A DNA stretch of 54,819 nucleotides, taken from positions 1 through 54,819 of the IMG/VR virus record IMGVR_UViG_3300031965_000715. The stretch is one strand, 5' to 3'. Positions 3,945 to 54,084 of this stretch are shown here, in pieces. Below the pieces are notes generated by a model, which saw only the letters and a list, made by a program, of their open reading frames with translations, was not told the origin of the DNA and searched no databases. Every line of letters begins with the position of its first letter. Position 1 is the first letter of the stretch. The DNA is from a virus. Taxonomy: Duplodnaviria; Caudoviricetes. A program made the translations under genes and the position numbers.

Positions 3945-4033
3945 CCTAACCCAGTGCCCAGTAACTTTTGTTAAAGCTAGCGTTTGCTAAAATTAATTAT
4001 TTGGTAAAGTTAGTTACTGGGCACTGGGTTAGG
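3945..4033. repeat. Perfect 22-bp inverted repeat whose arms carry the CCAGTGCCCAGT motif
   Basis: CCTAACCCAGTGCCCAGTAACT (3945-3966) and AGTTACTGGGCACTGGGTTAGG (4012-4033). Confidence 0.95.
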
Positions 4034-4034
4034 C

Positions 4035-4089
4035 CCTACTTTGTACAAAGTACAAAGTACAAAGTACAAAGTACAAAGTACAAAGTAGG
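4035..4089. repeat. Tandem heptamer GTACAAA x6 inside a CCTACTTTGTAC/GTACAAAGTAGG inverted repeat
   Basis: Six exact units at 4043-4084, read directly. Confidence 0.95.
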
Positions 4090-4309
4090 ACTGTGTCAAT
4101 ATGCCTGGGCCAGCACTGGATTAAACACTATTGTTTAGGAGCTATCTCCTAACCCTTTCCCAGTCGGGTGATGTCACTAGTGCCCAAACTAACTAATTAA
4201 TGTATGTAACCTAGTATTTATCTTTTCATCTCAACACTTACCTTTCCTCATGCTATTTATGTAATTTTAAAATTCGGCGGATCTCTAATTCTTTTCATAA
4301 ATTTACTCC

Positions 4310-4936
4310 TTACTTCCACAGGTTCTCATCGTCCGCAAAGTGTGGCAACAATAGGTCTCGTTTTCTGGTAAAACCCATTGTAATTTTAATAAGTCTTTCG
4401 GGATTGTGAGAGTTTGACCAAAAGAAACATTTTAACTTTTTCCAACATAAGTTCTGCCCCTCACTGGTAAGCATATAATCCAGTAATTTTTCAGTATATG
4501 CGTACGGGCCGAGTGGGTGCTGAGTATTTCGCATTGAGGTTTCTAGAAACCTGCGAAAGGTACTCATATTTTGCATGACAGAGGCTTCATGATAGGCGTA
4601 AGCAGCATTCCTTTGCTGCATATTTTCACAATAGGTTCTACACCAACTGTCTAGGTGGAAAGTCCTATCCCACCAGTAGCCTTCCCACAGTGTAGGAGTT
4701 GGCAAGTACAAAGTATTTTTACTATGTTCCATAGTAGCTCGACTGTGACCAGCACCAAATTTAGACAAGTGAAACCACTTACCTATTTTACGTGCCCAGT
4801 CAAATGCCTTGCCAAGTGCTGCCTTGAGCCTGATCTCCTTATCCATATTGCCACCAAACGGCAAATTGGAGTCGTCATAATCATCTGGGTACTGAACGAT
4901 ACTGTGTTTTGGCTCGCACATAGTTACTTCCTCCAA
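4310..4936 (-). CDS. Hypothetical protein
   Basis: 208-aa ORF overlapping the ligase stop; no recognised motif. Confidence 0.65.
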   Translation of the reverse strand: MEEVTMCEPKHSIVQYPDDYDDSNLPFGGNMDKEIRLKAALGKAFDWARKIGKWFHLSKFGAGHSRATMEHSKNTLYLPTPTLWEGYWWDRTFHLDSWCRTYCENMQQRNAAYAYHEASVMQNMSTFRRFLETSMRNTQHPLGPYAYTEKLLDYMLTSEGQNLCWKKLKCFFWSNSHNPERLIKITMGFTRKRDLLLPHFADDENLWK

Positions 4937-5943
4937 AAGCGGGCTTCTTTGGGAATACCACTATCGGTTAATTCCCGATACTTAAACGTAACAATACTAC
5001 CTACTGGGAACTGTACATTAAGCACTTTCACAGTAGATACTTCTTCTCCAGGTTCCCCATATGCACGTCCACCATCCCTGCTAGATAGCACACGTTCGGC
5101 TTCAGTAAAGCCGGACAACTCAAAAGTTTTCCCGTGCCACCTAACTACAAGGGCACCCATTAATCCTTCGAGTTTCCCATGGCCCCAAACATAACCAGTG
5201 ACCAGTGCCTCATCGTCGAGCCACTTTTTAATTTTAAGTAAATCATTGTTTCTGCTTGGGTACCAGTATGATGACGGATTACGAAGCACTACGCCTTCTC
5301 CGCCATTAACAGTTACTGTATCGAGAATATTCTCGATAGCTTCCTCAGCCTCAGAAGTCTGCATGGGTAGCCGTATCTGTTCTACGTACTGCCAAATTTT
5401 AGACTCAGGCATTTTTTGAAGCCTTGCGTAGACTTCCCTAAAAGATAAAACCTTGGTTCTACCTGATGGGGCATAACTTTCCAGGTCTAACTCAGCTTTC
5501 CAGTGTGGGACGCTAATATTACCATCTAAAAACATTAATTTGTCAGATGGAATATCAAAAACCTTATAGGTAACATCTTTCCATTCACTGGTCACTGGGT
5601 CAAATTTTTTAACAGTAGACATGAGCTTCTGGAAGTTGCCACGTCCAGCATATAGCTCGCCATCCAAAGGTAGATTTTCTGGAAGCTGATCGAGAAACCA
5701 CTCAGGGGCAGCAATAGGTTTGCCGTATCGCGACCACAAACCGGTACTCCGTGGCGGGGTAATTCGTCTGTAGTCTTTTGTGGTGTTTGCAAATGGTATG
5801 GACGAAGTAAGTATACCTCTGGTGAAACCACCATCCCAGTATGCTCGCATACCATCTAATTTTTCAGAGAGATACCAACCTCCGATACCATGTTTTTTTG
5901 GATCAAAGGTGTGAGCCAGTTGTAGAAACTCACGTCTTGCCAT
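4924..5943 (-). CDS. lig: ATP-dependent DNA ligase
   Basis: SEKLDGMRAYWDG (motif I, KxDG), LDGELY, VFD, EGVVLR, LLKIK and a C-terminal OB fold (TFKYRELTDSGIPKEARF). Confidence 0.95.
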   Translation of the reverse strand: MARREFLQLAHTFDPKKHGIGGWYLSEKLDGMRAYWDGGFTRGILTSSIPFANTTKDYRRITPPRSTGLWSRYGKPIAAPEWFLDQLPENLPLDGELYAGRGNFQKLMSTVKKFDPVTSEWKDVTYKVFDIPSDKLMFLDGNISVPHWKAELDLESYAPSGRTKVLSFREVYARLQKMPESKIWQYVEQIRLPMQTSEAEEAIENILDTVTVNGGEGVVLRNPSSYWYPSRNNDLLKIKKWLDDEALVTGYVWGHGKLEGLMGALVVRWHGKTFELSGFTEAERVLSSRDGGRAYGEPGEEVSTVKVLNVQFPVGSIVTFKYRELTDSGIPKEARFWRK

Positions 5944-6584
5944 TAAGACAACTCCCTTAAAAGTTTTTCTAATAGTCTGTGTTTTATTTGATTTGTTCTA
6001 CGTGTCGAAAGGTGTACTAGTTCAGCTATTTCATAATCTTTGTATCCTCTTTCCAGCGTACATTTTAATATAATTTGCTCGGAATCGTTTTGAGGTATTA
6101 GCTCAATAATCTCATTTAGATCAACAATATCTTGTTGACCTTTTGTTTCAGTTTCCATGTCTGCAAGCAGGACGACTTTAGCTGAGAATCCTTTTTTGAA
6201 TGCAGAGTGCGGGATTGGAACAAGAGTATTTCTCACCATCTCCCGTTTTATATTTTCAATAATTGATTTGTAAATGTAAGAGTGGACATCATTAATGGAT
6301 TCATTAATTTTAATAACAGCCTTGACCACCCCAAGTATTCCTGCTGAAATAAAATCCTCCTTATATGAAACACCAAAACATATCTTTCTTACAACTGACT
6401 TTACAATGGGCACATAAAAACTTATTAGTGCCTCTTGTAAAGTTTTTTTGTAGTTAGGACAAGAATAACATTCCTCTTGTTCTCCACAAATATCACAGTA
6501 CCTATAGTTATTTCCTTTTTTTAGAGCCTCTATAATTTTAGTAATGTCATCTTTGCTTAGCTCCATTTTGCTTCTCCATCGCAA
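5943..6584 (-). CDS. Sigma-70-like RNA polymerase sigma factor with N-terminal Cys cluster
   Basis: Region 2-like EDFISAGILGVVKAV; region 4 HTH YEIAELVHLSTRRTNQIKHRLLEKL; likely start at MELSK (6566). Confidence 0.75.
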   Translation of the reverse strand: MRWRSKMELSKDDITKIIEALKKGNNYRYCDICGEQEECYSCPNYKKTLQEALISFYVPIVKSVVRKICFGVSYKEDFISAGILGVVKAVIKINESINDVHSYIYKSIIENIKREMVRNTLVPIPHSAFKKGFSAKVVLLADMETETKGQQDIVDLNEIIELIPQNDSEQIILKCTLERGYKDYEIAELVHLSTRRTNQIKHRLLEKLLRELS

Positions 6585-6630
6585 AATTAATTTGGCCGAT
6601 TAGTATTAATAAGTTCTGGTCTCCCATTAC

Positions 6631-6659
6631 ATTATACGCTGTGTCCATCCAGAAGACAA
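6631..6659 (-). promoter_or_regulatory. Host sigma-70-type promoter upstream of the sigma factor gene
   Basis: TTGTCT-17 bp-TATAAT on the minus strand in an intergenic gap. Confidence 0.55.
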
Positions 6660-6714
6660 TGGTAAAAATTACTATTTTTCAAAAGTTTTATGGCAAAGTA
6701 AGTTTTTATTAATT

Positions 6715-7221
6715 TCAAAAAATAATATAGGCTATTTCAATTTTGAATAATCTAGAATCGTATTCATAAATAGAGAAGTTTGGATCATATATATATAATC
6801 TATTCCACGCAACAGCGTGAGGTTTGTATGTAGGAAATCCAGAACCTATTAACACACAACGGTATTTCTTCATATATTTTTCTACTCTTTTCAGCCCTCC
6901 GATATTAAAATTAATAATTCTGTCTCCAGCCACACAGCCTTGTGGATTTACTTCTATTGGTGTGACTGACAAATTATGTGCTAAACAAACATCATTTATT
7001 TCTTGAATATGAAAGCTGCGTCTGCAATACGGATCGGAATATTCCGGTGCAATAATATCTGAGCCATCGTGCCCTATAGCTTCAATAAACTGAGACACGG
7101 GTATATGAGCTACCATTGCAAACGCAGTTGGTAAGCAAGACCAATTATTCGGTTGCTTTTGCAACTTCATGCTCATGTTCCTGCTCCAGCATGGATTCAT
7201 CAATTTCAATCCACTGGTCAC
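6715..7221 (-). CDS. C39-like cysteine peptidase
   Basis: Q....SCLPTAFAM, HAVAW and IYDPN give a Cys-His-Asp arrangement; start probably at MKLQKQ. Confidence 0.65.
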   Translation of the reverse strand: MTSGLKLMNPCWSRNMSMKLQKQPNNWSCLPTAFAMVAHIPVSQFIEAIGHDGSDIIAPEYSDPYCRRSFHIQEINDVCLAHNLSVTPIEVNPQGCVAGDRIINFNIGGLKRVEKYMKKYRCVLIGSGFPTYKPHAVAWNRLYIYDPNFSIYEYDSRLFKIEIAYIIF

Positions 7222-7669
7222 ATTCCTCTTTTAGCTCTTTGTTAATACCACACCCCATAACTATAACTCTAATACCTTGCTTTTTTGCCCAGCTAATAAC
7301 TGGGGCAATACTTTTGTTAGAGTTACCAATAATTACTGTGTCCGTTTTATCTATTAAACGGACTATATCCATTGCAATACCAACATCCCAGTCATACCAT
7401 GAGTTTTTCTCAACGAGCCTGTATTGTGGTTCAAATCCCATATGGTGAAGTGCAGTTATGAAAGAGTTTGCATTATCATCAATCTTAGTACCGTAAGCTA
7501 AAGCTCTATCAACATTACCGAAAGTAGCAGCCCTATCAAGATACTTTTTGTAGTCTAGTTTTTTGCCTGGCCACCTCTTACTGATACAGTAAAACTGATT
7601 TCCAACATCAATAAATACCATTACTTTACTAGCCATTTTTACCTCACGGGGCAGAAGCCTGATGAACAT
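7145..7669 (-). CDS. NYN (LabA/DUF88, PIN-like) domain protein
   Basis: VFIDVGN, DVGIAMD, G.RVIVMG and LKEECDQWIEI; likely start MASKV (7636). Confidence 0.85.
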   Translation of the reverse strand: MFIRLLPREVKMASKVMVFIDVGNQFYCISKRWPGKKLDYKKYLDRAATFGNVDRALAYGTKIDDNANSFITALHHMGFEPQYRLVEKNSWYDWDVGIAMDIVRLIDKTDTVIIGNSNKSIAPVISWAKKQGIRVIVMGCGINKELKEECDQWIEIDESMLEQEHEHEVAKATE

Positions 7670-9579
7670 TCTAAATTTTCCTGTAAATTCCGTTCCTCGG
7701 AATCCACTATAGAGTAAATTGATTTGATTGCTGATTCCATTTCTGCATATTGTTCTTTTGTTATCTCCTCATAAGGTGCTTGAGTAAATCCGTGGCCAGA
7801 ATGTAGTAAGAATGAAACTGATTTAATAGAGGTATTGTAATTTTCAGTAAGATACTCTCTAATTTGAGGTATCTCACCTTTGTGATAGTAGCACGTTGCT
7901 GAAACTGAATTATCCGACCAGTATACTTGAGCTAATTCTTGAAATTTTAACTGGTCAATAACTGAGACATCTTTAGCAAGTATAGTTCCAGTTGGAGTTT
8001 TAATTGGAAAACTAATAATCATAGTTTCTAAATTCCTTGAGCCATCCTCATTGATTTTAGGCTCAATAGGATAACCACTTTCTCTACACATTTTAACTAT
8101 GGGGTCGTTAGATGAAAAACGTATACGTCTTACATAGTATTCAGCAAAAGCTGGATGTATTCCAGGCGTAACACCAGGCAACAGTGATAGTGTACCAGAA
8201 GGCTTAACTGTTGTTAGTTTTATCGAAGTACCAGTGCCCAGTAACCGGCTATACTGTGTATCTTCTTCCTCAATAGCCCTATAAACTGTAGTAAGTTTTT
8301 GTGGCTTTCTAACCCACTGACTTTGTAAGATACCAGTCAACCCAATACCTAAACGATGGTTACGCGACACTACTTCATTGACTTTATTATCGCTACATGG
8401 GTAGCATGATATAGTTTTACAAACCTTATAACCAAGTATTGCTGCCGTTATAAGTTCATCCATTGAGTTGAGGTTAGGTGTAAACAACTCAAAAAGATTA
8501 CAAGCTTCATATGGTTCTAATGGTACTTCACCACATGGGTTAGTACCTGTAACACCTGTGTCCGGCCTAGAGTGTTGTACGTCATCAAGCCTGCCATATG
8601 TGCGGCACAAGTCCAAATTAATTAGGCCATATGGCTCACCTGTACCTGAGTAATTTTCCCAAAAAGTCTCTGGTAACTCTCTTACATCATTACATGCAAC
8701 AGAGTTATTACTCATACCACGCCAATTGGGTACAGAAAACTTATCCCAGCTTTTAGCTGTTAAAAATAAATTGTCATCTGGCGAGCCAAGAGCTAACTCA
8801 GCCGATCGTCTAACATTACCGGCAACAACAATATCACCAATTATATTTAAAATATCAAGACAGTCAATAGGTCTAAGTTTCCTACCTACGCGACTCTGCA
8901 TTATACCTACAATTTTAGATATACCTTGAACTAGATTTTCAGAACCTGAGGCAGTACCACCAAAGCTGGAAATAGGTCTGCCTTTAGAGCGTATACATAC
9001 AGTGGAATACTTAAGATTTTTTCCCGTTTCAAAGAAACATCTAAGTGTTTTTCGTAAAAGTTCTACCCATCCCTCCCTATTATCTGGTACTATAAAATCG
9101 ACATCATTTTCATCTACACGGACAACACTAACACCATACTTTACTGTAGGTAATTCATATACAAACTCAGGTTGTATATTAAAACCTACGCCGCCACCAA
9201 GCATAAGTTGATTAAAAGTAAAGCAGAAAGAATGTAGCTCTGTAATAGCTACGTGCCAGCAATTTTGTAGGCTATCGGCTCCAATCCTATGGATATTTGA
9301 TGTGCCTAGCTGCCACAAAGCACGCCCAGAGAAACAGCACCTAAGATTAAAAACATAGTCATAAAGCTGCTGTATCTCTTCACTAGTAAATATGCCACCT
9401 ATATCTAAAATACCTTGACAGCATCTAGCTACAGTTTGCCACCATTCTTCTGTTTCACCACTATCTGTCAATCTAGCGTATGTACGCTTATAAACAACAT
9501 ACCCAAGTGGACCCCAGTTAGGTTGTTTGCCACGGTACTTTTCGATAAAGGAACTATTAAGCGAGTTCACGTAACGCAT
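7639..9579 (-). CDS. nrdJ: Class II (adenosylcobalamin-dependent) ribonucleotide reductase
   Basis: VYKRTYAR, SGRALW, NCW, LMLGGGVGF, VAGNVRRSA, TNPCGE, TVKPSGT and C-terminal CSSGFCP; no beta subunit gene nearby. Confidence 0.95.
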   Translation of the reverse strand: MRYVNSLNSSFIEKYRGKQPNWGPLGYVVYKRTYARLTDSGETEEWWQTVARCCQGILDIGGIFTSEEIQQLYDYVFNLRCCFSGRALWQLGTSNIHRIGADSLQNCWHVAITELHSFCFTFNQLMLGGGVGFNIQPEFVYELPTVKYGVSVVRVDENDVDFIVPDNREGWVELLRKTLRCFFETGKNLKYSTVCIRSKGRPISSFGGTASGSENLVQGISKIVGIMQSRVGRKLRPIDCLDILNIIGDIVVAGNVRRSAELALGSPDDNLFLTAKSWDKFSVPNWRGMSNNSVACNDVRELPETFWENYSGTGEPYGLINLDLCRTYGRLDDVQHSRPDTGVTGTNPCGEVPLEPYEACNLFELFTPNLNSMDELITAAILGYKVCKTISCYPCSDNKVNEVVSRNHRLGIGLTGILQSQWVRKPQKLTTVYRAIEEEDTQYSRLLGTGTSIKLTTVKPSGTLSLLPGVTPGIHPAFAEYYVRRIRFSSNDPIVKMCRESGYPIEPKINEDGSRNLETMIISFPIKTPTGTILAKDVSVIDQLKFQELAQVYWSDNSVSATCYYHKGEIPQIREYLTENYNTSIKSVSFLLHSGHGFTQAPYEEITKEQYAEMESAIKSIYSIVDSEERNLQENLECSSGFCPVR

Positions 9580-9994
9580 TGTAAGCTCCTAATGCCTTAG
9601 CTATTTCACGAAAATCATCTGACCATAAGTCTACTATAAAACGCATTAGGCCAATTTGCTCATCTTTAGAAATGAGACCGTAAATAGGTATACCTCTTGA
9701 CCAAGCAGCCCCTACTTCAGCCCAAGCATCACATCCACTTGGACCAATATAAATAACAGCATCAGATTCAGTAGCACCTTTCGTATCAAATTTAAAAGAG
9801 TGCTGTGCATGTTCGGACTTTATCCACTCTTCAAAATTAACACAGGCATCAGGTTTGTAACTCTCACCAAAAGAGTTTTCAACAAATGACTTAACTTCAT
9901 GGCCTTGAGCACGAAGTATATCTGTCAACATTTCAACAGCATGTTGATTTTTCCAGGAGGAAGCAATATAGATTTGCATAGCTAACTTATCCAT
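9557..9994 (-). CDS. Nucleoside 2-deoxyribosyltransferase-like protein
   Basis: IYIASSW, SDAVI, AWAEVGAA..GIP match the NDT/RCL fold. Confidence 0.7.
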   Translation of the reverse strand: MDKLAMQIYIASSWKNQHAVEMLTDILRAQGHEVKSFVENSFGESYKPDACVNFEEWIKSEHAQHSFKFDTKGATESDAVIYIGPSGCDAWAEVGAAWSRGIPIYGLISKDEQIGLMRFIVDLWSDDFREIAKALGAYNALRELA

Positions 9995-10857
9995 ATAAGA
10001 GTATCGGCTGTAAAACCAGCAGCATTTTTATGCCCACCACCACCAAAGGCTTTAGCTATCTTGCTAACATCAAAGTCACCTCGTGAGCGTAGTGAGTAGA
10101 CAAATTTGCCTTCCTTACTCATGAACCACATTACAGCAAAGCAATGCCCATCAAGACAGAGAGCATCACCTACTTCACTCTGATTTGTTGGGCAATTTAC
10201 TATTGCTGCTGGCCAAGTTAGCCCTTCAGGATTAATAGGGAAAGGCACAACAACAGCACTATTGGCTGCATTTTCAATTTGTCGCTGTTGAAAGTTTAAA
10301 ATAGACTCGCCTCTAAAGACTAAAACCATAAATTCTGTCTGTAAGACTTCTTCAAGTCCATTCCAAATATTAAATTCCAAAGGAAGAGACCTCAGATATG
10401 CACTGATGGCTTTAGAAAATGGCAATTTGAATTCCCATAAATCTCTATCTTGTACATATGCGGCAAGTAATGGTTTCTTATATGAGGGCAAGTGCCCAGT
10501 GCCCAGTGTACAGTTAGCACTAATAGCAATAAAGTAGTCATAAGCTAGGGTTGCACCTGATCTATCCATATCAAAATAAATTTCAACATTGTCATTTACT
10601 TTGTCTGCAAGTTCTGCTGCAGCAGTTTTATGATGGTCTAAAACAACAACTTTCTTGACCATTGTAGATAGTTGATATAATTCAGGTTTCTTAAAACTAA
10701 AATCAACTAAATAAACAATGTCATCGGGTTGCAGGTCACTGGGCACTGGCCATCCATAATGCAATGGAATAAATTTACAGTCTTTAAGAAACTTCCAGAA
10801 GTACAAAGCAGCACAAAAACCATCACTACAACCAGCATGGTAAATTACTACGTTCAT
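9982..10857 (-). CDS. DHH/DHHA1 family phosphoesterase
   Basis: YH..C.DG, VDFS, LDHH, DRDLW, SLRS, GGGGHKNAAGF. Confidence 0.93.
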   Translation of the reverse strand: MNVVIYHAGCSDGFCAALYFWKFLKDCKFIPLHYGWPVPSDLQPDDIVYLVDFSFKKPELYQLSTMVKKVVVLDHHKTAAAELADKVNDNVEIYFDMDRSGATLAYDYFIAISANCTLGTGHLPSYKKPLLAAYVQDRDLWEFKLPFSKAISAYLRSLPLEFNIWNGLEEVLQTEFMVLVFRGESILNFQQRQIENAANSAVVVPFPINPEGLTWPAAIVNCPTNQSEVGDALCLDGHCFAVMWFMSKEGKFVYSLRSRGDFDVSKIAKAFGGGGHKNAAGFTADTLIWIS

Positions 10858-11192
10858 TTCATTACTCCAAGAAACATGTGCCAGTTAGGTGGTCCAAAAA
10901 TAAGATTGTACTGAGTTTCTGTTGCTGCTGTAAGTATCCAGATACCTACACCCTTTGCAGAAAACTCAGGAAATACGTCCATTTGTGCAGGTGTAAAACT
11001 ATAGTGATTAGCAATTTTAACTTCAATCCAGCGTGTTCCATACCTAGTATGACAAGCATAGAAATCTGGAAACCCTGACTGGTATATGTTTCCATGAGTA
11101 TTTCTCACATACCAGTCATGTAATTTAAAGATATTCATTATCTTTTCTTGTAATATGGATTCAGGCTTTTTTTGCTTTTTCAACTTTACCAT
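10854..11192 (-). CDS. VRR-NUC domain nuclease
   Basis: ESILQ, GFPD, WIEVK, TPAQ. Confidence 0.85.
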   Translation of the reverse strand: MVKLKKQKKPESILQEKIMNIFKLHDWYVRNTHGNIYQSGFPDFYACHTRYGTRWIEVKIANHYSFTPAQMDVFPEFSAKGVGIWILTAATETQYNLIFGPPNWHMFLGVMK

Positions 11193-11433
11193 CGCAAAAT
11201 GCTTTCGTTAAAATTAATAACTGAAGAGCGTCATTGATACATGCTGAATAAGCTACAGAACCCTCATTAAGATTACGAGCTTCCATAATCTTTTCCATGG
11301 CTTTTGTAGTCCAATACGACGGGTTGCCAACATCAAGAATTATTTTTTGAACTGATGTTGGTTTGTTTGGATTAAACAGAGCCCCGTTTGCTGCCTTCTT
11401 TAAGTCTCTGAACAACATTTTCAATCTCCTCAA
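11161..11433 (-). CDS. Hypothetical protein
   Basis: ORF in a tightly packed operon; start uncertain. Confidence 0.6.
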   Translation of the reverse strand: MRRLKMLFRDLKKAANGALFNPNKPTSVQKIILDVGNPSYWTTKAMEKIMEARNLNEGSVAYSACINDALQLLILTKAFCDGKVEKAKKA

Positions 11434-11761
11434 TAAGATAAATCTTGTTTAGTCTGTGGTAGTCAGGAATTCTGAGGTTACGACCTATGCCTCTTAACTT
11501 TGCCATATTCATCTTGTAGAATGGCGTTAGCTTATCTACCTCCTTTTTTATTAAAGACTTTAAAGTTAATTTGTCTTCACGCTCAATAGCTTCTTCAATT
11601 CTTTTTCTTGTTTCATTGTCAGCATTTATATATGCCAATTCAAAATTATCACCAGTAACTAACCTATCAATAGACATCATGTTTATGTACTTTGCGTGAA
11701 AACTTTTCCTTAGAGTTTTCAAGCCTGTCACTATCGTTCTCCCACAAATCAAAAACTTCAC
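11372..11761 (-). CDS. Hypothetical protein with Rho-N/HeH-like C-terminus
   Basis: MNMAKLRGIGRNLRIPDYHRLNKIYLIEEI resembles the Rho N-terminal helical motif; start probably near 11680. Confidence 0.55.
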   Translation of the reverse strand: MKFLICGRTIVTGLKTLRKSFHAKYINMMSIDRLVTGDNFELAYINADNETRKRIEEAIEREDKLTLKSLIKKEVDKLTPFYKMNMAKLRGIGRNLRIPDYHRLNKIYLIEEIENVVQRLKEGSKRGSV

Positions 11762-11861: not shown

Positions 11862-11872
11862 TTATTTTACTC

Positions 11873-17050: not shown

Positions 17051-17586
17051 TTTCTCTCTAATAGAAATGTTTTATCTAATAGTGATTTTTTTCTGTATTC
17101 GTAAAAGAGTTCTCCGAGCCCTTCTTGCTCTAGTAAAATTAATAACTTATCAAAAAGTACACGATAGTTCTTTTCATAAGTTACTACACTACTTAGGTAC
17201 AAAATAATATAATACCACCAATCAAACAAAGGTCCAGTGCCCAGTACACAGTATTTATTGTTCTCCACTTTATTGATACACCACACAATATTTACCATAT
17301 CACGTAATGTATCAAGTGTTTCTTTGTCACACGCTACAAGAAAACTATATTGCAAAAAAGCTAATATGTCACGTGGCATAGTGCGTAATATTTGAAGTGG
17401 ATCTTTAATAATAAAGTCATATTTGAGATATGCTGCAAATATTAAGTATTCTGCTGCTGGAGAAAAGGTCACTGGGCACTGGGCTATAAGACTAGACGGA
17501 GTTAGGTTAGTCGCTACGAAAATATTTTTCCGTAGCGTGGACCAATCAACTTCTGTTTTTGATATTAAAATTACTTCAGGAGTCAT
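17047..17586 (-). CDS. Hypothetical protein, possibly a degenerate ThyX-fold protein
   Basis: Pattern resemblance only (see findings). Confidence 0.55.
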   Translation of the reverse strand: MTPEVILISKTEVDWSTLRKNIFVATNLTPSSLIAQCPVTFSPAAEYLIFAAYLKYDFIIKDPLQILRTMPRDILAFLQYSFLVACDKETLDTLRDMVNIVWCINKVENNKYCVLGTGPLFDWWYYIILYLSSVVTYEKNYRVLFDKLLILLEQEGLGELFYEYRKKSLLDKTFLLERK

Positions 17587-17979: not shown

Positions 17980-17982
17980 GGG

Positions 17983-28741: not shown

Positions 28742-29664
28742 CAGCCAGTGACCTCCAACTCAAAGCCAGCACTAAATCCAGTTTTGTTTGGTTCTGATAT
28801 AGCTTCACTTGGTGTTAAAATTATACCTTTCCATTCTCTACTCTCAAAATCTAACACTTTAATTTCCTGACCCAGTGACCAGTGAATAAAATTAAGCAAT
28901 GCTACAATAGTAGCCTCTGATAAATTAGTAAAAGAAAATATTAGTCGCTGGGCACTGGGCCAGGTATAATCACTATAGATTTCTAGATCACCTCCTCTAG
29001 TACGCCTGTTAATTCTACGTGGCTCAAATTGTTCCACATTGTCAAAATTTGGGTTCCTTAGTTCCAATTCTAGTGTAGAACTAGTATACGGCCAGTAAAG
29101 AATTGTGGTATTTCTCCTTATTAAAGTAGGTGGTGTAACTCCTAAATTATAGGAGCAGTAGTTAAAAGTAAAGTAAGAGACTGCACTCTCTATACTAAGA
29201 CTATTACTTACTGATTTATAAATAACTCCATCAGTAGTGACATTTTGTGTTAAATTTAATACGCTAGCAACCTCGTACCCAACCCAAGCTTCTACAGCCT
29301 GAGTGATATTTAATTGGCTTTCAACAGTTTCATGTAAGATTATTTCTACAGAATCTGTTATATTTAATATATGTTGATAGTTTAAAGGAATAGCATTTTT
29401 AACAAAACTGCCCAAGCCCAACTGGCTTTCGACAGATATACTTAGTATCATATTTAGTGAAATATTTTGACGAAGACCTTTATCTACTAATAATGCAGCT
29501 ACAGCATCTTCATCGTACACATCTACGTTAATTAGTTCATTAGGGTCTATATCCGAAGCACTGGCTTGTAAATTAGTATCTACGGTTACGTAAATAGGTC
29601 CCATATAACTCATTAATTGAGCTATACTAAGTTCTGAGGTTATAGTTTCTGTGTAAATAGACAT
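28741..29664 (-). CDS. Putative distal-tail-like protein with N-terminal beta repeats
   Basis: Repeats of ETVESQLNITQ type followed by a domain similar to the C-terminus of 46406..47683. Confidence 0.55.
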   Translation of the reverse strand: MSIYTETITSELSIAQLMSYMGPIYVTVDTNLQASASDIDPNELINVDVYDEDAVAALLVDKGLRQNISLNMILSISVESQLGLGSFVKNAIPLNYQHILNITDSVEIILHETVESQLNITQAVEAWVGYEVASVLNLTQNVTTDGVIYKSVSNSLSIESAVSYFTFNYCSYNLGVTPPTLIRRNTTILYWPYTSSTLELELRNPNFDNVEQFEPRRINRRTRGGDLEIYSDYTWPSAQRLIFSFTNLSEATIVALLNFIHWSLGQEIKVLDFESREWKGIILTPSEAISEPNKTGFSAGFELEVTG

Positions 29665-29666: not shown

Positions 29667-30323
29667 TTATGCACTAACTGAGTAAGTGAGTTTCAGTTGG
29701 TCTCCACTGGTCACTGGTACAGAAGCAGAAAACAAACCAGTTGACCAAAGTGTACCACTTCCACCAGATTTAGAACTGTTAGAAACAACAAATATTCCTC
29801 TTACAGTGCCACCTGCTCCACTAATATTAAAAGTAATAGGTGAAGCATTTGTTACTGTCTGACCAGAAGAAGCTCCTGAACCCCAAGCAACTCTTGTTGT
29901 TTCTGAATAATTAGTAAATTCTGTCCAACCTGTATGGCTGGCCATTGTGTCAGCATCAGCTAAAGCTGTAAAACCTGAGTTGTCAATAAGGCCAACAAAC
30001 CAGCTATTATTAGCAATTTGTGTAACATCATTAAACATTACATCAAGAAGCAAGTCTTTCCCAACATCTGTTTCAGCGTTAGGAAAATCGTAAATTGCCT
30101 TTAGATTACCAAAGAGATCACGATGTTCAATGTGAAATTGTCCTTTAAGATTTAAAATAGAGTTCATTGGGTTTTTTACCTCCGAAGAGTCTCCACAGTG
30201 TTCACAACGAATAAGCCACTCACGCTTGTTTCCACACTTTCTGCAAGTTACTGGAAATTCTAACTTTTGTTGTTTCCGAATAACTTGTACATCGATAGTT
30301 TGATTTAAGCCAATCTTATTCAT
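29667..30323 (-). CDS. Virion beta-sandwich fibre-type protein with N-terminal CxxC..CxxC
   Basis: N..T..G..LLD, ADTMASHTGWTE, TNASPITF, GDQLKLTY resemble a common phage structural family. Confidence 0.65.
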   Translation of the reverse strand: MNKIGLNQTIDVQVIRKQQKLEFPVTCRKCGNKREWLIRCEHCGDSSEVKNPMNSILNLKGQFHIEHRDLFGNLKAIYDFPNAETDVGKDLLLDVMFNDVTQIANNSWFVGLIDNSGFTALADADTMASHTGWTEFTNYSETTRVAWGSGASSGQTVTNASPITFNISGAGGTVRGIFVVSNSSKSGGSGTLWSTGLFSASVPVTSGDQLKLTYSVSA

Positions 30324-42056: not shown

Positions 42057-42562
42057 CCTACCTGACTGCGTACATCTTTATGTACTTCGTATAACTCATC
42101 AGACATCCAAATACCGTGCATAGTAACTGAGTCAGCCGGTTTCACGAATTCTGACCAGTGACCAGTATACTGTAAAATATCGATATTTAATTTTTTAATA
42201 CTTTCTCTACGTTTCTCTGACTCATAATAGCCAATCCAACTTTGCTTTGTATTTTCAACTACTTCGTGAAAAGTCCATTCTATTGCTTTAAAATCACCAG
42301 GATGGTCTTCTGGGTCATCGTCCCAACATATTAATTTTATAAAGTTATCAAAATGGATGATGGCGTAATGATCGTAACAAGAAAATATTATTCCTTGTAT
42401 ATTTATTGCATTGATGTAGAAAAAATTATTAGAATTAATAGAATTAGATAATAGTGACTGGTCACTGGGCACTGGTGCCTTTGGCAATGCAGCCCACTTA
42501 ATTGAATCCATTAAAATCCAATTTTTGGGGCTAAGTTCAGCTCTCTGTACTAAAACTTTCAT
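42038..42562 (-). CDS. Hypothetical protein
   Basis: 174 aa, Trp-rich, translationally coupled. Confidence 0.7.
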   Translation of the reverse strand: MKVLVQRAELSPKNWILMDSIKWAALPKAPVPSDQSLLSNSINSNNFFYINAINIQGIIFSCYDHYAIIHFDNFIKLICWDDDPEDHPGDFKAIEWTFHEVVENTKQSWIGYYESEKRRESIKKLNIDILQYTGHWSEFVKPADSVTMHGIWMSDELYEVHKDVRSQVGWREWL

Positions 42563-49413: not shown

Positions 49414-51062
49414 TAGTACGCCTTTATGCTTTGTGAGGCTCCAAGAGACACTGCTAGAGGTAAAGCTATCTCTGAATAAGTACGTGAATGGGCAAAGTGA
49501 TCTTCCTCTTGCCCTCTAACATACTTTGCAATTGGATTCCCATCTTGATCTTTCTCATAAACTCTAACAAGAGCCTTCATATGATTTTTATATTCTCGTG
49601 GAATATCTTTTGGCAATATAATCATTTGTGACTTAAATCTACTTAGTGCCATATCTATCCATGATGTTCTATCAACAGTTACACTTAATTCGTTATTTGT
49701 ATCTTCATCAGAACTTAAATGTATTTGTTTTCCCTGTATACTACGTCCATAGTAGCAAAGCCTAACTTTTCCCCAAAATCTAGATGCAAATTCATAAGCT
49801 TTACGTCGTTCTGGTAGCATATCTACAATACAAAATAAAACATTATATTTAAACATAAACTGATCTAATTCTTCAAAGTGGTTAAGTTTTGCAACTGCTA
49901 AAACTTGGCACTTTGCTTCAGAGTTTATATCAACAACATTATTGCCTATGTGCCACTTATCTATTTCCACATGCAAATAGTTTCCAACATCAACACCCAT
50001 TGTTATAAGACCGGTACTGTTGGCCATTTGTGTTATATGATCTCCTATACAGTTATCAATATCTTTATCTGTAATTCTTGCACCTTCAACAACATGTGGC
50101 TTACCTAACTTTGAGTTAAAGAACTCCTGTTCATCGGCGGGGTTTGTTTTTGCTTTATAGTATTGATATACGATTTTACCTGGATGGACAGTTGATGAAT
50201 AAAGTTGACTTATTCCCCAACCAGCAATACTTCTATTTTCAAATTGGGATATCCATCTTCCTGTTTCTAACCATAAATACTTTTCCTCATGTGGTATTTT
50301 AACATAACAAAGTGGACATTTTATATAAGATTCAGTAATCCTTGGGTCATCATAGCCTTCACCAATTATTTCGATAGCATCCGGCCATGTTAAATTTATA
50401 TAACGTGAACAACTTTTACATCTAAAGAAAAATTCATTTTGTGTAGATTGATTAAAAGTTTCATTAATACCAAATCCATCAATAGTAGGAGTACTAATTT
50501 CCCATGTTTTATTTAAATCATACCCTGACTGTCTTTCTCTAGCCAGTGGTATGTTATCTTGATTCATCTCATCTTTTTCATCAAAAACTAATACACCTAC
50601 TGGAACAGACTTTAATCCCGATCGTGATTTTGCACCACGTAAGTAAAAATTTGTGTTTCCAGCTCTCTTATGACCAACATTTTTAACGTTGGAAAACATA
50701 CGCCGTAAATGCGGTGACAGTTCAAGGGCAGCATCAAATCGTGCCGCTGAAAAATCTGAAGCATCAGGTGTTTTTGATGGCAAGACGTACAGAACATCAA
50801 CTCCATGAACATCAATATAAAAGAAACAGATATTAAGTACAGTCTCAGTAAAGCCCATTTGAGCAGCTTTTTGACCAACATTAATATCTGCCTCTGAATT
50901 ATGCATACCACGGAGCCAGGGATGTTTTTTAAAAGTCCAAGGCCCAGCAAATGGTCTGCCCATTATTCGATAAGCCGTCGCCCAGCGTGCAGGATCAACT
51001 ATACTTTTTCGTTTCAATCCTGAAACAAGACGATCAGATAATAAATTAGCTAAAGTATGCAT
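49413..51062 (-). CDS. terL: Terminase large subunit (lambda GpA-like)
   Basis: KAAQMGFTE, FDEKD, ISTPT, CKSC/CPLC, FFNSKLG, MGVDVG, DHFAH. Confidence 0.93.
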   Translation of the reverse strand: MHTLANLLSDRLVSGLKRKSIVDPARWATAYRIMGRPFAGPWTFKKHPWLRGMHNSEADINVGQKAAQMGFTETVLNICFFYIDVHGVDVLYVLPSKTPDASDFSAARFDAALELSPHLRRMFSNVKNVGHKRAGNTNFYLRGAKSRSGLKSVPVGVLVFDEKDEMNQDNIPLARERQSGYDLNKTWEISTPTIDGFGINETFNQSTQNEFFFRCKSCSRYINLTWPDAIEIIGEGYDDPRITESYIKCPLCYVKIPHEEKYLWLETGRWISQFENRSIAGWGISQLYSSTVHPGKIVYQYYKAKTNPADEQEFFNSKLGKPHVVEGARITDKDIDNCIGDHITQMANSTGLITMGVDVGNYLHVEIDKWHIGNNVVDINSEAKCQVLAVAKLNHFEELDQFMFKYNVLFCIVDMLPERRKAYEFASRFWGKVRLCYYGRSIQGKQIHLSSDEDTNNELSVTVDRTSWIDMALSRFKSQMIILPKDIPREYKNHMKALVRVYEKDQDGNPIAKYVRGQEEDHFAHSRTYSEIALPLAVSLGASQSIKAY

Positions 51063-51616
51063 TAATCTTCTAATGGATTTTCAATTGCAAGAGTAGCCTG
51101 AGCCATTTCTTGGCTTATAGACTCAATAATATCTGGGTCCGATACATAATTATTAATAATTTGAACATATGTTGATGCAAGCTGTAAAACAGAAGATTTA
51201 TTTAATAATAATCCCATCCTGTTTTCTAATTTATCACAACTGGTCACTAGTCTCTCTATCTTCATAACTAAATCAGACATTTTTTGTGAGTAAAGCAAAA
51301 TATCTAAGCTTGTCTCACATTGATTTAGCATTTCTTCTAATACCATACGAAGAATACCTACTTCTTCGCGTAAGCTTTTAATATTATCATTGTCTGCAAA
51401 TTCACTTATTCTATTTTGCCATCTTTGTAACCTGTAGTTTCGTTGAATTTCAGTTTTTCTGGCATTTTCACCACTATTTGCACCATGCATTTCGCAATGA
51501 TTAGTGCTTCTAGCTTTTTTATATGGACACTGACCACTTTTTACAGTAGCTTCGCACCTTTCTCGTGGGTGATCTGTTTTTACATTCCAACGAACAAATT
51601 TATTATCAACTACCAT
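51062..51616 (-). CDS. terS: Putative terminase small subunit
   Basis: RCEA....GQC......CEMHG zinc motif, SLREEVGILR; directly upstream of TerL. Confidence 0.7.
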   Translation of the reverse strand: MVVDNKFVRWNVKTDHPRERCEATVKSGQCPYKKARSTNHCEMHGANSGENARKTEIQRNYRLQRWQNRISEFADNDNIKSLREEVGILRMVLEEMLNQCETSLDILLYSQKMSDLVMKIERLVTSCDKLENRMGLLLNKSSVLQLASTYVQIINNYVSDPDIIESISQEMAQATLAIENPLED

Positions 51617-51632
51617 AAATTAGTCCTAAAAT

Positions 51633-51665
51633 CCCCAGGTAGTGGACTAGTCCAGCTACCCGGGG
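51633..51665 (-). terminator. GC-rich hairpin, probable terminator
   Basis: CCCCAGGTAGTGGACTAGTCCAGCTACCCGGGG, followed by ATTTT on the minus strand. Confidence 0.65.
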
Positions 51666-51680
51666 CACCCAAGGAGATTG

Positions 51681-52028
51681 TTAGCTTGTAAAGATTTTTT
51701 CTAGAAAGAAAAATGCAAGAGTTATAACTCCAGTACCAAGAGCCCCTATAGTTAAAAATAGATACTTTTCTTTACTTTGACTTTTATCTTCGAGTTTTGC
51801 AACTCTTGTTCTGAAACCACTACGATCAGCTTCGCCATCAATATCTGTTTCTAGTCGTATAACTTTTTTTTCTATATTTACAAAGCGTTCCATACATACT
51901 GAGCCTCTATTTTCACATGTAGTTTTTATAATTTTAACATCTGTGTATATAGCGTTCATTAATTTTATAGCTTCCTCAACTCTTTCATCAAGTCGATCAA
52001 CACGTTTTTCAATTGCTTCATCTATCAT
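51681..52028 (-). CDS. Coiled-coil protein with C-terminal TM helix
   Basis: Heptad pattern followed by YLFLTIGALGTGVITLAFFFL. Confidence 0.7.
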   Translation of the reverse strand: MIDEAIEKRVDRLDERVEEAIKLMNAIYTDVKIIKTTCENRGSVCMERFVNIEKKVIRLETDIDGEADRSGFRTRVAKLEDKSQSKEKYLFLTIGALGTGVITLAFFFLEKIFTS

Positions 52029-52030
52029 AC

Positions 52031-52324
52031 CTAATTATTCCTTTGAAGCAAAGGAAATAGTTTTGGCCGAGTCAATAAATTTTTACGACACTGTTCATTT
52101 TCGCAGGAAGAAGTAGCTGCTTTAGGTGTCTCTTTAATTTGATTAGGTACTGGGAGTACCATTTCTATTTGTTTTGGCACCACCGCCTCTACTTCTACCT
52201 GCTCAACCACATAGCGATTTCTTTTTATCGCTATTGAAGAACAAATTAATCCACGCCACCGTCCAGCCTCTGCAATTGATGGGGCGACAAGTATCACAAT
52301 TGTTAAAAGTAGCAACTTTTTCAT
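52031..52324 (-). CDS. Small secreted protein
   Basis: Signal peptide MKKLLLLTIVILVAPSIAEA; C-terminal CENEQC plus basic tail. Confidence 0.7.
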   Translation of the reverse strand: MKKLLLLTIVILVAPSIAEAGRWRGLICSSIAIKRNRYVVEQVEVEAVVPKQIEMVLPVPNQIKETPKAATSSCENEQCRKNLLTRPKLFPLLQRNN

Positions 52325-53334
52325 TAGAGGAAACTCCCTGTTCCATAATTAGGAATAGTTTTTGCGGGAAAACCATCAATATCACTATAAAAATATATTG
52401 ATCTGCCTCCCAGAAAATACTGCTCCCAAACATCACCGTGAACTGTTATCATCCCATCAAAGGGAAAACCTACAAGTTTCTGAATTTCAATATCATTAAG
52501 CCATTTAGACCATTGCTGATTCCAAGTAGCCCAGCTATTAGCTACAAAGTAGACTCTAACAGGCCAGATTTCTCTGGTGTCATCATACCCAACAGTAGCC
52601 ATATCATGGTTCCACGTACCTTGTTTTGCGTGAATACCATTAGAGGTTGGAGTACTATTAAATCCTACATTCTGTCCAGAGTGGCAAGCATATCCATTTT
52701 GAAATAATGCTATGGCTTCATCAGATGTTTCAGGCACCAGATATTTGCCTACAGCGTGTTTTTTACACAAATCAAGAACTTCTTGTGGTGGGCCACTACC
52801 TCCCCACCTAGCTCCTGTATTTGAGTTATACTTAGTTAAGTCAACTACGCCCTCATAGTTTTGTCTAACTAAAAAGCCATACTCAGTGACAAATCGAGCG
52901 GCTCTGGCAGGGTCCATTCCCTGTCCGCCATGACCTCGATAGCCATAAGTAGGCTCTGTAGCACCTCTTTTATAGTATTCTTCAGCTTCACCTTTAATAT
53001 GTATTTCTATACTACGTGTAGTGTCTCTGGCACTTCTATCTCCATGTGAGGTACAGTCACCAGTAGTCTGTGATTCTTGTCCATAAGCCCCTGGATCAAA
53101 TAATTCTCGACTTCTATAGAGGCAAGCTCTTTTATTATTACCTGGATTAGTACGCAGTAGCTCTTCTACTGCATCAGGACCAAGGACAATACCGTCAGTA
53201 AATAATTTCTCGTACTCTATTGGATTTGTAGGTGCTCCAGGAAAACCGTTCTCGTATAATTTTAATAACTCTTGGGGGCTTGCCCCAGAGCCCAGTGACC
53301 AGTTCACTTTTGACCTCCTTTCCAGAAAGCCCAA
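52324..53334 (-). CDS. Papain-like (C1) cysteine peptidase
   Basis: QTTGDCTSH (oxyanion Q and catalytic C), WNHDMATVGYD (His), VANSW (Asn). Confidence 0.85.
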   Translation of the reverse strand: MGFLERRSKVNWSLGSGASPQELLKLYENGFPGAPTNPIEYEKLFTDGIVLGPDAVEELLRTNPGNNKRACLYRSRELFDPGAYGQESQTTGDCTSHGDRSARDTTRSIEIHIKGEAEEYYKRGATEPTYGYRGHGGQGMDPARAARFVTEYGFLVRQNYEGVVDLTKYNSNTGARWGGSGPPQEVLDLCKKHAVGKYLVPETSDEAIALFQNGYACHSGQNVGFNSTPTSNGIHAKQGTWNHDMATVGYDDTREIWPVRVYFVANSWATWNQQWSKWLNDIEIQKLVGFPFDGMITVHGDVWEQYFLGGRSIYFYSDIDGFPAKTIPNYGTGSFL

Positions 53335-54053
53335 GAAATTGCTTCAAAAATTTTACCCGTGGTCACTGGGTCAATAGATTTTACTTCTAACCCAATTTGC
53401 TCGGCTAAAATACCATCGATAATTTCAGGTAACCCAGCGTACTTACCGCGAATACCTGTATCTTCAAAAAATAATTTACCAGCCTCTACATAAGAGTCTC
53501 TTAACTGTGAGTTTGTAAGAGTTCCAGTTTGGGCGACCACTGAAGCAAAATCGCTATAAAACTCAATTAAGTTTTCACGATCTTTTGTACTGATATCAAG
53601 CTTATACTCTGTAAGCGAGGCTACAGCTTGCTTTAAATTAGGGGTAGGCTCTGGTGGACCTGGTACGGGTGGCACGGGCACGGGTGGCACGGGCACGGGC
53701 ACAGAACCGCCATAATTTACTTTATGCTCATACAAATTAAGTGTAGGTGGTCCACCTGTATTATTTGTAGCAACAATTAAGGTAAAGGTTTTAGTGCCAG
53801 CGACCAGTGACCAGTAGATGTTGATAGGGGTTCCATTTCTATCATACATTTCTATCCAAACATCGTCCTTAGACTCAGGGAAGATCCTCCATAGTGTGGT
53901 ACAGGTGTCATTGGAAGGTAAGCCTACAGTCAGTAACTGTATTGGCTGTTTAAGTACAGCTTCACTAGGTCCTACTATTTTTACTTCCTGTGCGAAAAGA
54001 GTTATCGGGAGAAGTAAAAATAGGAAAGTGAGAGTTCTATGGTTACTGGTCAC
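53304..54053 (-). CDS. Secreted protein with Ig-like domain, Pro-rich linker and helical C-domain
   Basis: Signal peptide; PVPVPPVPVPPVPGPPEPTP. Confidence 0.75.
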   Translation of the reverse strand: MTSNHRTLTFLFLLLPITLFAQEVKIVGPSEAVLKQPIQLLTVGLPSNDTCTTLWRIFPESKDDVWIEMYDRNGTPINIYWSLVAGTKTFTLIVATNNTGGPPTLNLYEHKVNYGGSVPVPVPPVPVPPVPGPPEPTPNLKQAVASLTEYKLDISTKDRENLIEFYSDFASVVAQTGTLTNSQLRDSYVEAGKLFFEDTGIRGKYAGLPEIIDGILAEQIGLEVKSIDPVTTGKIFEAISWAFWKGGQK

Positions 54054-54084
54054 TGGATTAGTCTCCTATTAATTTTAATAAAAG

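Follow-up and report, generated by a model that had tools for sequence, protein, structure and literature searches.

The 54,819-bp linear viral record IMGVR_UViG_3300031965_000715 of IMG/VR, analyzed here over its entire length (hereafter the window; estimated completeness ~58%, G+C content 37.9%), derives from a tailed phage, as indicated by matches to PHROGs and Pfam, and carries a short nucleotide word in numerous dispersed copies that are arranged predominantly as convergent inverted pairs. This word, the 12-mer CCAGTGNCCAGT, comprises two heptads of the form CCAGTGN and belongs to a family of heptamer tandem repeats concentrated in cyanobacteria. Its copy number, its ordered arrangement and the perfect conservation of several of its sites in a diverged relative point to a signal, structural or regulatory in nature, that is built from this cyanobacteria-type 7-letter repeat and is not a product of chance. 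As to its mode of action, we tentatively propose that the word is a selected cis-element whose arms base-pair with each other in single-stranded nucleic acid, probably in mRNA, a proposal to which we give somewhat less than even weight.

An over-represented word arranged in convergent pairs

Exact copies of CCAGTGNCCAGT number 25 in the window, against 0.01 expected from 100 shuffles, and 40 copies are recovered if up to one mismatch is permitted (0.47 expected). Merging of overlapping copies yields 22 sites, 13 on the plus and nine on the minus strand, which succeed each other along the window in the order +-++-+-++-+-+-+-++-++-. Each minus site thus has a plus site as its immediate predecessor, an order for which the exact label probability is 0.0014. 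Neighboring sites within 1 kb of each other define eight convergent, two divergent and three same-direction pairs (label-shuffle P=0.0008), and at least eight convergent pairs were reached by none of 200,000 random placements. The convergent start-to-start distances are 65, 124, 237, 241, 242, 302, 392, 834 and 1489 bp, and the divergent ones are all at least 534 bp. Furthermore, the variable base N is identical between the two arms (A/A or C/C) in seven of the eight pairs (permutation P=0.009), which makes the arms exact complements of each other.

A preliminary description of this DNA had noted ordered inverted pairs of fixed polarity, and the coordinates it gave are correct throughout; the non-random order that it suspected is borne out by the above label-shuffle and placement tests. 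Its list of copies was incomplete, those at 2446, 42464 and 54755 having been missed, and its statement that a forward copy lies within 0.85 kb before each exact reverse copy holds for nine of the ten 12-mers, the exception being 2446 (N=G), whose nearest exact forward copy is ~1.5 kb away. The polarity is fixed in the sense of being convergent as opposed to divergent: given that a word followed by its reverse complement reads the same on either strand, no strand or direction of transcription is specified, and the arrangement is therefore a weaker argument for an oriented translocase than had been assumed. Likewise, confinement to a single open reading frame (ORF) is seen for 5195/5587, 10496/10738, 17234/17471, 42155/42457 and 53804/54045 (one arm of this last pair overlaps a start codon), but not for 3951/4016, which is intergenic. 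The supposed pair 28872/29706 (834 bp) is probably not one, as 28872 most likely pairs with a local partner at 28947, which would leave 29706 as a single site.

The sites, along with the arrays that accompany them, are as follows:

955..1011, plus strand: heptamer tandem array, GACCAGT x4 and then AACCAGT and AATCAGT units (period 7, 8 copies over 956-1011)
2446..2457, minus strand: single site, N=G, in ORF 2176-2607, with a 1-mismatch forward copy at 2557
3316..3327, plus strand: single site, N=C, inside the exonuclease-like ORF 2612-3616
3945..4033: predicted intergenic hairpin, 12-mers at 3951-3962 (plus) and 4016-4027 (minus), 22-bp complementary arms, pair probability 1.0
4043..4087: second heptamer array, GTACAAA x6.4, period 7, adjoining the hairpin 3945-4033
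5195..5598: long-range pair, 392 bp, N=A/A, in the ATP-dependent DNA ligase gene, neither arm with a local partner
8231..8242, plus strand: single site, N=C, in the class II ribonucleotide reductase (RNR) gene, at the same codons in the relative L146 (see below)
10489..10749: long-range pair, 242 bp, N=C/C, in the DHH phosphoesterase gene, encoding LGTG and PVPS
17234..17482: long-range pair, 237 bp, N=C/C, in ORF179 (17047-17586), just upstream of the helicase gene
28872..28958: probable local hairpin in ORF 28741-29664, exact plus arm at 28872 and minus arm at 28947 (start-to-start 75 bp; complement match 10/12, with one mismatch to the N-tolerant pattern)
29706..29717, minus strand: probably single site, N=A, near the 3' end of ORF 29667-30323
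42155..42475: long-range pair, 302 bp, N=A/A, in ORF174 (42038-42562), pairing probability 0.97 in the predicted fold; the minus arm is a double site, 42457 + 42464
53285..53369: plus site 53292-53303, accompanied by a 1-mismatch copy (53285) and by a 10/12 complementary partner ~54 nt off
53804..54056: long-range pair, 241 bp, N=A/A, in ORF249 (53304-54053)
54579..54773: non-coding cluster at the right end of the contig, plus sites 54579 and 54631, minus site 54755 (N=G) and a 1-mismatch copy at 54762

Nineteen of the 22 sites fall wholly within called ORFs, some of these calls being doubtful; those in the DHH, ligase and RNR genes, ORF179 and ORF174, at least, are truly intragenic. Three local hairpins can be distinguished (3945-4033, which is intergenic, 28872/28947 and 53292), and the remaining five long-range pairs (237, 241, 242, 302 and 392 bp), all intragenic, lack a local partner above the null level. 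The possibility that these five are decayed local hairpins was rejected, as the best local match to any of their arms is only 6-8/12, which is the null level; such a reading is accepted for 28872/28947, for 53292 and for several of the apparent pairs in the distant relative described below. Degenerate partners of the single sites were not consistently more frequent in the convergent position.

Contigs from three further studies of soil and sediment metagenomes carry the same phage. Independent contigs span all the sites in positions 1-20000 with zero differences reported at the sites, confirm the pair 17234/17471, and break only at the two long heptamer arrays, 955-1011 and 4043-4087; the sites are real and not an artefact of assembly. 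Joints indicative of the inversions or deletions between paired arms that had been envisaged earlier are not seen in the contigs of four runs, though contigs drop rare variants and the absence of such events is hence not shown.

Conservation of the sites in a collinear relative

The closest homolog of the DHH protein (59% identity) is encoded by a 12.2-kb metagenome contig, L146, which is collinear with positions 4316-14916 of the window, with proteins 52-89% identical and an overall nucleotide identity of ~70%. L146 possesses the DHH pair at identical codons and with a spacing of 241-242 bp. The two DHH genes are 64% identical at the nucleotide level, with 54% identity at the third positions of conserved codons; it is precisely the two arms that account for the two longest exact runs of the gene alignment, 16 and 14 nt. 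Across the shared 10 kb, five of the seven window sites, namely both DHH arms, the single RNR site and both arms of the intergenic hairpin, are perfectly conserved in identical alignment columns, compared to 363 of 10,729 background 12-mers (3.4%; binomial P=9e-7). Thus, the sites are under constraint.

The remaining two of the seven sites form the ligase pair, both arms of which are missing in L146. At their positions L146 has unrelated codons in the same number (PVDE for PVTS and ASVIG for ALVTG), implying that arms are gained or lost through substitution, and here as a pair. Hence, the coupling of paired sites surmised in the preliminary description is corroborated on several counts: the match of N in seven of the eight pairs, the joint absence of the ligase arms, the constraint on the sites and the replication of the convergent rule in a second phage (see below).

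Neither a protein-level repeat nor an insertion

Copies of the word within genes use frames 0, 1 and 2 and encode PVTS/PVPS, QCPV, SDQ, LGTG/LVTG, WSL/WAL and TGHW; further copies occur in non-coding DNA. A repeat at the protein level was accordingly ruled out, all three reading frames being used and copies being found between genes as well. Among the left arms read in the mRNA sense, six of the eight matches in credible ORFs share a single frame, encoding P-V-x-S, and one other frame would give a TGA stop if N=A; this bias, along with the risk of a stop, suggests codon-level limits on the placement of the word.

In the DHH gene both arms overlie residues that align with homologs, across 14 sequences, with no 4-codon insertion at either arm, and every one of the 14 aligned homologs has the interior between the arms in collinear form, with no extra segment. 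Similarly, the ORF179 ortholog of the distant relative aligns over its full length while being devoid of the arms. An inserted element such as a MITE, intron or intein was rejected as the origin of the intragenic pairs, as neither DHH, ligase nor ORF179 shows an extra segment. Between genes, one pair of the distant relative, upstream of its helicase gene, encloses an extra small ORF that is absent from the window.

A second phage with paired sites and the extent of the clade

In IMG/VR, a scan for paired sites with a gap of 215-245 bp recovered four pairs in two contigs for the convergent pattern and none for the divergent one. One of these two contigs, the distant relative G004 (IMGVR_UViG_3300020163_000009, 35.7 kb), encodes proteins 40-55% identical to those of the window and contains 26 sites, 24 of which are CCAGTGCCCAGT, with the extended consensus tAAG-CCAGTGCCCAGT. 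Nine of its ten minus sites are immediately preceded by a plus site, and its pairs at distances up to 300 bp comprise seven convergent, no divergent and four same-direction ones (label shuffle P=0.0016; for the convergent rule at a 1-kb limit, P=0.0004). Most of the sites in this phage are intergenic, the typical unit being a predicted hairpin of ~52-57 nt that consists of a left arm, a ~28-nt loop and a right arm. The similarity among copies of this unit is not limited to the arms (79-95% identity; five units have a loop of 27-28 nt), one of them precedes each small gene, and the right arm with an adjoining CTTAG is located 17-30 nt upstream of the next ATG. At this degree of divergence the positions of individual sites are not conserved between the window and G004.

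The other contigs that the gapped scans returned are unrelated and rich in GC, and in those designated L210-L212 the arms are mismatched at N. A final single-site scan of IMG/VR with a 14-mer gave at least 118 new loci, none of which has a second site. As far as sampled, the paired-site system is confined to a small clade of soil and sediment tailed phages. Other TerL relatives display different heptamers and words of their own, mostly in a single orientation. One such relative, L010 (positions 1792-5927 and 6930-6994), whose TerL is 67% identical, has the heptamer array ATCGTTC x9 and a 12-nt word, AAGCAACCATCC, at nine places, eight of them in one orientation, which may be a phage-specific promoter-like signal.

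Spacing near 240 bp

The preliminary description had emphasized a repeated spacing of ~240 bp. The three window pairs at 237, 241 and 242 bp, a triple picked post hoc, have a P of 0.007 to 0.07 across null models. The gaps between exact arms in G004 include 236, 238, 244, 249 and 252 bp, and its three convergent pairs in the 227-257 bp class have an ascertainment-corrected P of ~0.006; at least two of these G004 gaps trace to hairpins one small gene apart or to locally partnered arms. Convergent scans of IMG/VR with the neighboring gap windows of 184-214 and 246-276 bp gave one and three pairs, against the above four at 215-245 bp. The former pair re-uses an already counted site, and the latter three represent one locus in three contigs that are identical there, GC-rich, unrelated and mismatched at N, so that no sharp 240-bp peak is seen across neighboring gap windows. 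We regard a real ~240-bp class as suggested rather than established, and as a somewhat doubtful prospect. The ~240-bp interiors compared by blastn-short showed no similarity other than matches of 13-14 nt.

Predicted folding, translation starts and a proposed mechanism

In minimum-free-energy folds of the mRNA-sense strand the arms are paired in ten of 17 pairs, mostly those with spacings of up to ~300 nt. The short pairs give predicted hairpins with a pair probability of 1.0, and one predicted stem closes a 135-nt interior. In the intergenic pairs the complementarity continues past the word, to 22 bp at 3945-4033 and to ~15-31 bp in G004. Four window sites lie at translation starts when read in the mRNA sense: the array 955-1011 ends 5 nt before the AAGGAG of the ATG at 933; the hairpin 3945..4033 has its right arm ~37 nt upstream of the ATG at 3914; the site 53292 directly follows a likely GTG start that overlaps an upstream TGA stop; and the arm at 54045 contains a GTG start, 6 nt after AGGAG.

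No association with promoters or terminators was seen. Positions 1-20000 and 40000-54819 contain 42 terminator-like sites, all of them at places other than the motif pairs, and no T runs follow the right arms. Promoter-like matches do not exceed those in shuffles (57 vs 56.6 and 50 vs 45.5), and only site 54579 overlaps a good one, though the phage's own sigma-like proteins may use other promoters. The plus sites 54579 and 54631 sit in a direct repeat of ~52 bp (54559-54643), in each copy of which the word lies within GTAC…GTAC and GGTAGGGGGT comes after it. The strongest promoter-like match of this region, TGGTCA-18-TATAAT (10/12), overlaps the copy at 54579. The GTACAAA array adjoining the intergenic hairpin (4043-4110, with the mRNA sense being the minus strand) is directly preceded by a perfect TTGACA, whose promoter geometry could be altered by changes in the copy number of the heptamer; contigs from other runs stop inside this array.

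The preliminary description had put forward three mechanisms, namely looping or bridging of DNA, oriented loading of a clamp or translocase, and pairing in single-stranded DNA or mRNA. The data lean toward pairing, because the arms are exact complements, the complementarity at intergenic sites extends over 15-31 bp and the loops are short. In such a mechanism, a small clade of soil and sediment tailed phages would keep a host-type heptamer word under selection as a dispersed cis-element. Between genes, two arms separated by a loop of ~28-60 nt might form a hairpin just upstream of a ribosome-binding site or start, whereas inside genes the word would be written into existing codons by substitution, giving exactly complementary arms 237-392 nt apart. 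The arms would base-pair, most plausibly in polycistronic mRNA, to form a GC-rich stem of fixed sequence, which could then be recognized or cut by a structure- or sequence-specific factor, thereby potentially controlling the processing or stability of the mRNA, or access to nearby start codons. Such a factor might be the phage NYN-domain RNase or a host double-strand RNase; the former is a candidate only. Pairing itself, its occurrence in RNA rather than single-stranded DNA and the identity of the factor are all points that we infer.

Several observations weigh against such pairing. The arms are unpaired in seven of the 17 predicted folds, including all three pairs with spacings of at least 392 nt, and two of the ~240-nt window pairs, 17234/17471 and 53804/54045, are among those left unpaired. 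Ribosomes translating the ORFs would melt intragenic stems, and a recurring spacing of ~240 bp is not predicted by pairing. Conservation of the partner-less RNR site in L146 implies that the word matters alone, and this suits protein recognition no less than it suits a stem. Inspection by eye, with no formal count, found no clear excess of G-U-compatible changes in degenerate partners, and a literature search found no factor known to recognize such stems.

Relationship to the heptamer repeats of cyanobacteria

A three-unit version of the word, a 19-mer, matched at least 120 stretches in a species-representative genome collection. Among the 80 loci listed, 36 are cyanobacterial, with 13 in Scytonema (one genome), six in Aliterella, five in Chroococcidiopsis and further ones in Microcystis, Prochloron, Rivularia and others; the other 44 are scattered, mostly with one to three per genome. 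Counts of the 12-mer in three cyanobacterial genomes are 1,514 in 11.3 Mb, 286 in 5.3 Mb and 283 in 6.0 Mb. The density of sites in the phage, 456 per Mb, is thus 3 to 10 times that of these sampled genomes (47-134 per Mb). The host of the phage is probably a cyanobacterium. A pentapeptide-repeat ORF at the left end of the contig fits such a host: the first 700 positions consist of ~40 copies of a 15-nt unit, with higher-order periods of 45 and 90 nt, whose minus-strand reading gives A(N/D)LXX pentapeptide repeats in an ORF open at the contig end, and pentapeptide-repeat proteins are very common in cyanobacteria.

The convergent rule is not shared by the repeat family as a whole. A 788-kb sample of Scytonema contains 58 sites and no inverted pair within 1 kb, from which it follows that the rule is lineage-specific; among the listed sites of Aliterella there are five close convergent pairs and no divergent one. 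At two loci of Aliterella atlantica (G002:C3:91100-91500 and G002:C6:98250-98650; L141, L143) convergent CCAGTGA arrays flank a ~115-bp interior that appears by eye to be the same sequence in opposite orientation, and these loci resemble a small invertible or mobile element with heptamer-array ends. In the Scytonema contigs C252 and C253 (genome G001) the arrays occur in long same-strand runs (e.g. --+-------++++++++----), hinting at an orientation bias linked to replication or gene direction.

As in the STRR-type repeats of cyanobacteria, the 7-nt unit is iterated head to tail in the window arrays 955-1011 and 4043-4087, and it also forms arrays in Scytonema, Aliterella, Chroococcidiopsis, Microcystis and others. 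The phage system differs from these cyanobacterial repeats in its carrier and in its 3-10x density relative to the three sampled genomes, in that most copies comprise two units, lie within genes in three frames and are positionally conserved across diverged genomes, and in that its convergent pairs extend up to ~400 bp apart. As the unit presumably differs by about one base from the classical STRR1-3 units, we term it STRR-like rather than STRR. A literature search found no paper describing phage-borne paired heptamer words of this sort.

Heptamer tandem repeats have a sporadic distribution, are especially rich in cyanobacteria and have candidate roles only (MacGregor 2015, PMC4679880). The same paper describes TAACTGA repeats as often being located a few nt upstream of start codons, and the phage sites at translation starts are reminiscent of these. 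A precedent for pairing is the trnL intron of Nostoc, in which heptanucleotide repeats base-pair into a hairpin (PMC3488679).

Alternative explanations

The foremost alternative, which we hold to be unlikely but the best placed of those outside pairing, is that the word is a duplex-DNA site of a phage or host protein, such as a ParB-like one, and that its convergent copies are bridged or looped by a dimer or higher oligomer, in which case the ~240-bp class would correspond to a favored size of loop. Bridging of DNA and the use of short, repeated words in it are known from ParB systems, and the phage encodes two ParB/Spo0J/Noc-type proteins with ParB_N and ParB HTH domains, both of which are retained in G004 and the first of which is also present, in part, in L146; the two are candidate factors only. 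That the word has value on its own (the conserved partner-less site), that spacings of 237-252 bp recur at non-orthologous places in two phages and that five long-range pairs of the window lack local partners would all accord with bridging. Moreover, the window offers no canonical parS as an alternative target: a scan with the parS consensus, a ~16-bp palindrome, gave one match with three mismatches against 0.42 expected. However, the sites bound by ParB proteins of this type (parS/NBS) are palindromes confined to one or a few loci, whereas the word is a direct heptad repeat with ~20 sites dispersed through genes. Duplex binding would require neither the match of N between arms nor the outward extension of complementarity in the hairpins, and a protein could not loop stiff duplex DNA over the 28-60 nt of the hairpin loops. 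A more conventional candidate for a ParB site is the perfect 30-bp palindrome at 17983-18012. This palindrome, which lies between the ParB-like genes next to a TAA x13 microsatellite (17940-17978), was also flagged as terminator-like with a 13-bp stem, and is not shared by the relatives examined.

Slightly less probable is a selfish or mutational repeat, in which a REPIN- or MITE-like mini-element, along with slippage or conversion of heptamers, spreads the word and the intragenic copies are tolerated passengers. The heptamer indeed attains hundreds to ~1,500 12-mer matches per genome in the three cyanobacteria, and convergent arrays in Aliterella flank short intergenic segments, two of them sharing (by eye) the ~115-bp interior in opposite orientation. 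The ~57-nt hairpin units of G004 are family-like in their 79-95% identity, some enclose small ORFs that the window lacks, and site positions are not conserved at 40-55% protein identity. REPINs (PMC3116915) consist of short words in a fixed convergent doublet that can form a hairpin and is dispersed in many copies, with the doublet rather than the single word being the unit; they are extragenic and RAYT-linked, whereas most window copies are intragenic substitutions, with arms up to hundreds of bp apart. Against a passenger origin, five of seven sites are perfectly conserved at ~70% nucleotide identity, as opposed to 3.4% of 12-mers, and neutral passengers should decay like synonymous sites, the third positions being only 54% identical. 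The intragenic arms are indel-free substitutions in conserved domains and not insertions, the phage has 3 to 10 times the sites per Mb of the sampled cyanobacteria, and the 58 sites of the Scytonema sample include no inverted pair within 1 kb. Further, a scan of 48 ORFs of the ~58%-complete window with PHROGs or Pfam (two ORFs with both libraries; all but ~19 small ORFs covered) turned up no RAYT (IS200/IS605-type) or transposase family, though a host enzyme could act in trans.

It is improbable that the words serve as short homology points for modular exchange between co-infecting phages, the inverted orientation allowing a double crossover to swap the interior with no deletion. The precedent is provided by the PeSL cassettes of T4-type phages (PMC4122927), in which a conserved short stem-loop recurs between small ORFs of the plastic early region, much like the hairpin unit before each small gene of G004. 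A PeSL unites a promoter and a terminator-like stem-loop, and homologous exchange occurs between its copies, which are direct repeats; with the word, in contrast, no accompanying promoter or terminator signal was recognized, its arms are inverted and many of its copies are intragenic. In G004 pairs bracket small extra ORFs between conserved genes, and the ligase arms differ together in L146, with their interior being the least similar region (0.57-0.67 identity vs 0.69-0.75 in the flanks); but this dip is within the range seen elsewhere along the window-L146 alignment, no step in identity accompanies the sites in DHH, in RNR or between genes, the DHH interior is collinear in 14 of 14 aligned homologs, and 12 bp is very short for homologous exchange.

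Finally, an origin by chance, as a repeat of the encoded proteins, or through an artefact of assembly or amplification (for instance, primer sequence in amplicon ends) is refuted for practical purposes: even though a word and its reverse complement in same-length replacement is, by our own reasoning, the expected look of single-primer amplicons, and some unrelated GC-rich contigs do have coincidental pairs, the 25 copies face an expectation of 0.01, all three frames are used, contigs of three further studies have the same sites, a relative from another metagenome with 64% nucleotide identity in the DHH gene has the same pair at the same codons, and heptamer arrays are also present in the genomes of named cyanobacterial strains.

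Implications

The system is closest to STRR-type heptamer repeats and REPIN-like doublets, and is set apart from the two by its phage carrier, the mostly intragenic location of its sites, their long-range pairing arrangement and their conserved positions. In a bolder version, which we deem unlikely, the clade would have turned a host-type heptamer into a genome-wide paired-site system read by a dedicated factor at a cost in amino acids, with the reader being either a ParB-type protein that bridges ~240-bp loops or an RNase or RNA-binding protein that reads long-range stems. Cyanobacterial heptamer repeats have been known for decades, and we know of no function established for them; if this version were true, the word would be the first such repeat with a demonstrable selected role and a new kind of intragenic cis-code in a virus. 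A compact phage genome renders selection, coupling (as the match of N) and cost (as codons overwritten) measurable, and would thereby convert an old descriptive puzzle into a testable one, with a 12-nt word and a handful of candidate factors encoded nearby. That phage coding sequence can carry a second signal, at the level of the nucleic acid and dense enough to shape the amino-acid sequence, would also be relevant to annotation, to codon-based evolutionary tests and to the prediction of hosts from shared repeat words.

Gene content and other features of the phage

Nearly all genes of the window are carried by the minus strand, and a megablast search of a GenBank phage collection with 20 kb of the window gave no match. 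The genes identified include:

2612-3616: exonuclease-like ORF
4924-5943: ATP-dependent DNA ligase (PHROGs/Pfam)
7145-7669, minus strand: NYN-domain (PIN-like RNase) gene (PF01936, E=1.4e-21), with an ortholog in L146
7639-9579: class II ribonucleotide reductase (PHROGs/Pfam)
9982-10857: DHH phosphoesterase (PHROGs/Pfam)
11873-14107: DNA polymerase (PHROGs/Pfam)
14308-15156, minus strand: ParB-like protein 1 (ParB_N + ParB HTH), with orthologs in L146 (partial) and the distant relative
15146-17050: helicase (PHROGs/Pfam)
18787-19818, minus strand: ParB-like protein 2 (ParB_N + ParB HTH), with an ortholog in the distant relative
20162-22855: primase (PHROGs/Pfam)
30323-33676: tape measure protein (PHROGs/Pfam)
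36879-38297: major head protein (PHROGs/Pfam)
47683-49413: portal (PHROGs/Pfam)
49413-51062: terminase large subunit (PHROGs/Pfam)

Two sigma-factor-like proteins are encoded at 5943-6584 and 24441-25070. A group of genes at 22852-24438 specifies ThyX, a protein with a dATP/dGTP diphosphohydrolase N-terminal domain (PF18909, E=1e-25) and an RNase T-like exonuclease; this group is found near the class II RNR and a weak match to nucleoside 2-deoxyribosyltransferase. The diphosphohydrolase family is associated with modified-purine phages, and the ~58%-complete contig showed no PurZ-like gene. A search of the window for known RNA families and tRNAs found none. Two 63-nt tandem repeats, at 40773-40926 (2.4 copies) and 41322-41452 (2.1 copies), with 91-95% matches, both lie inside a 716-aa ORF of no assigned function (39906-42056).

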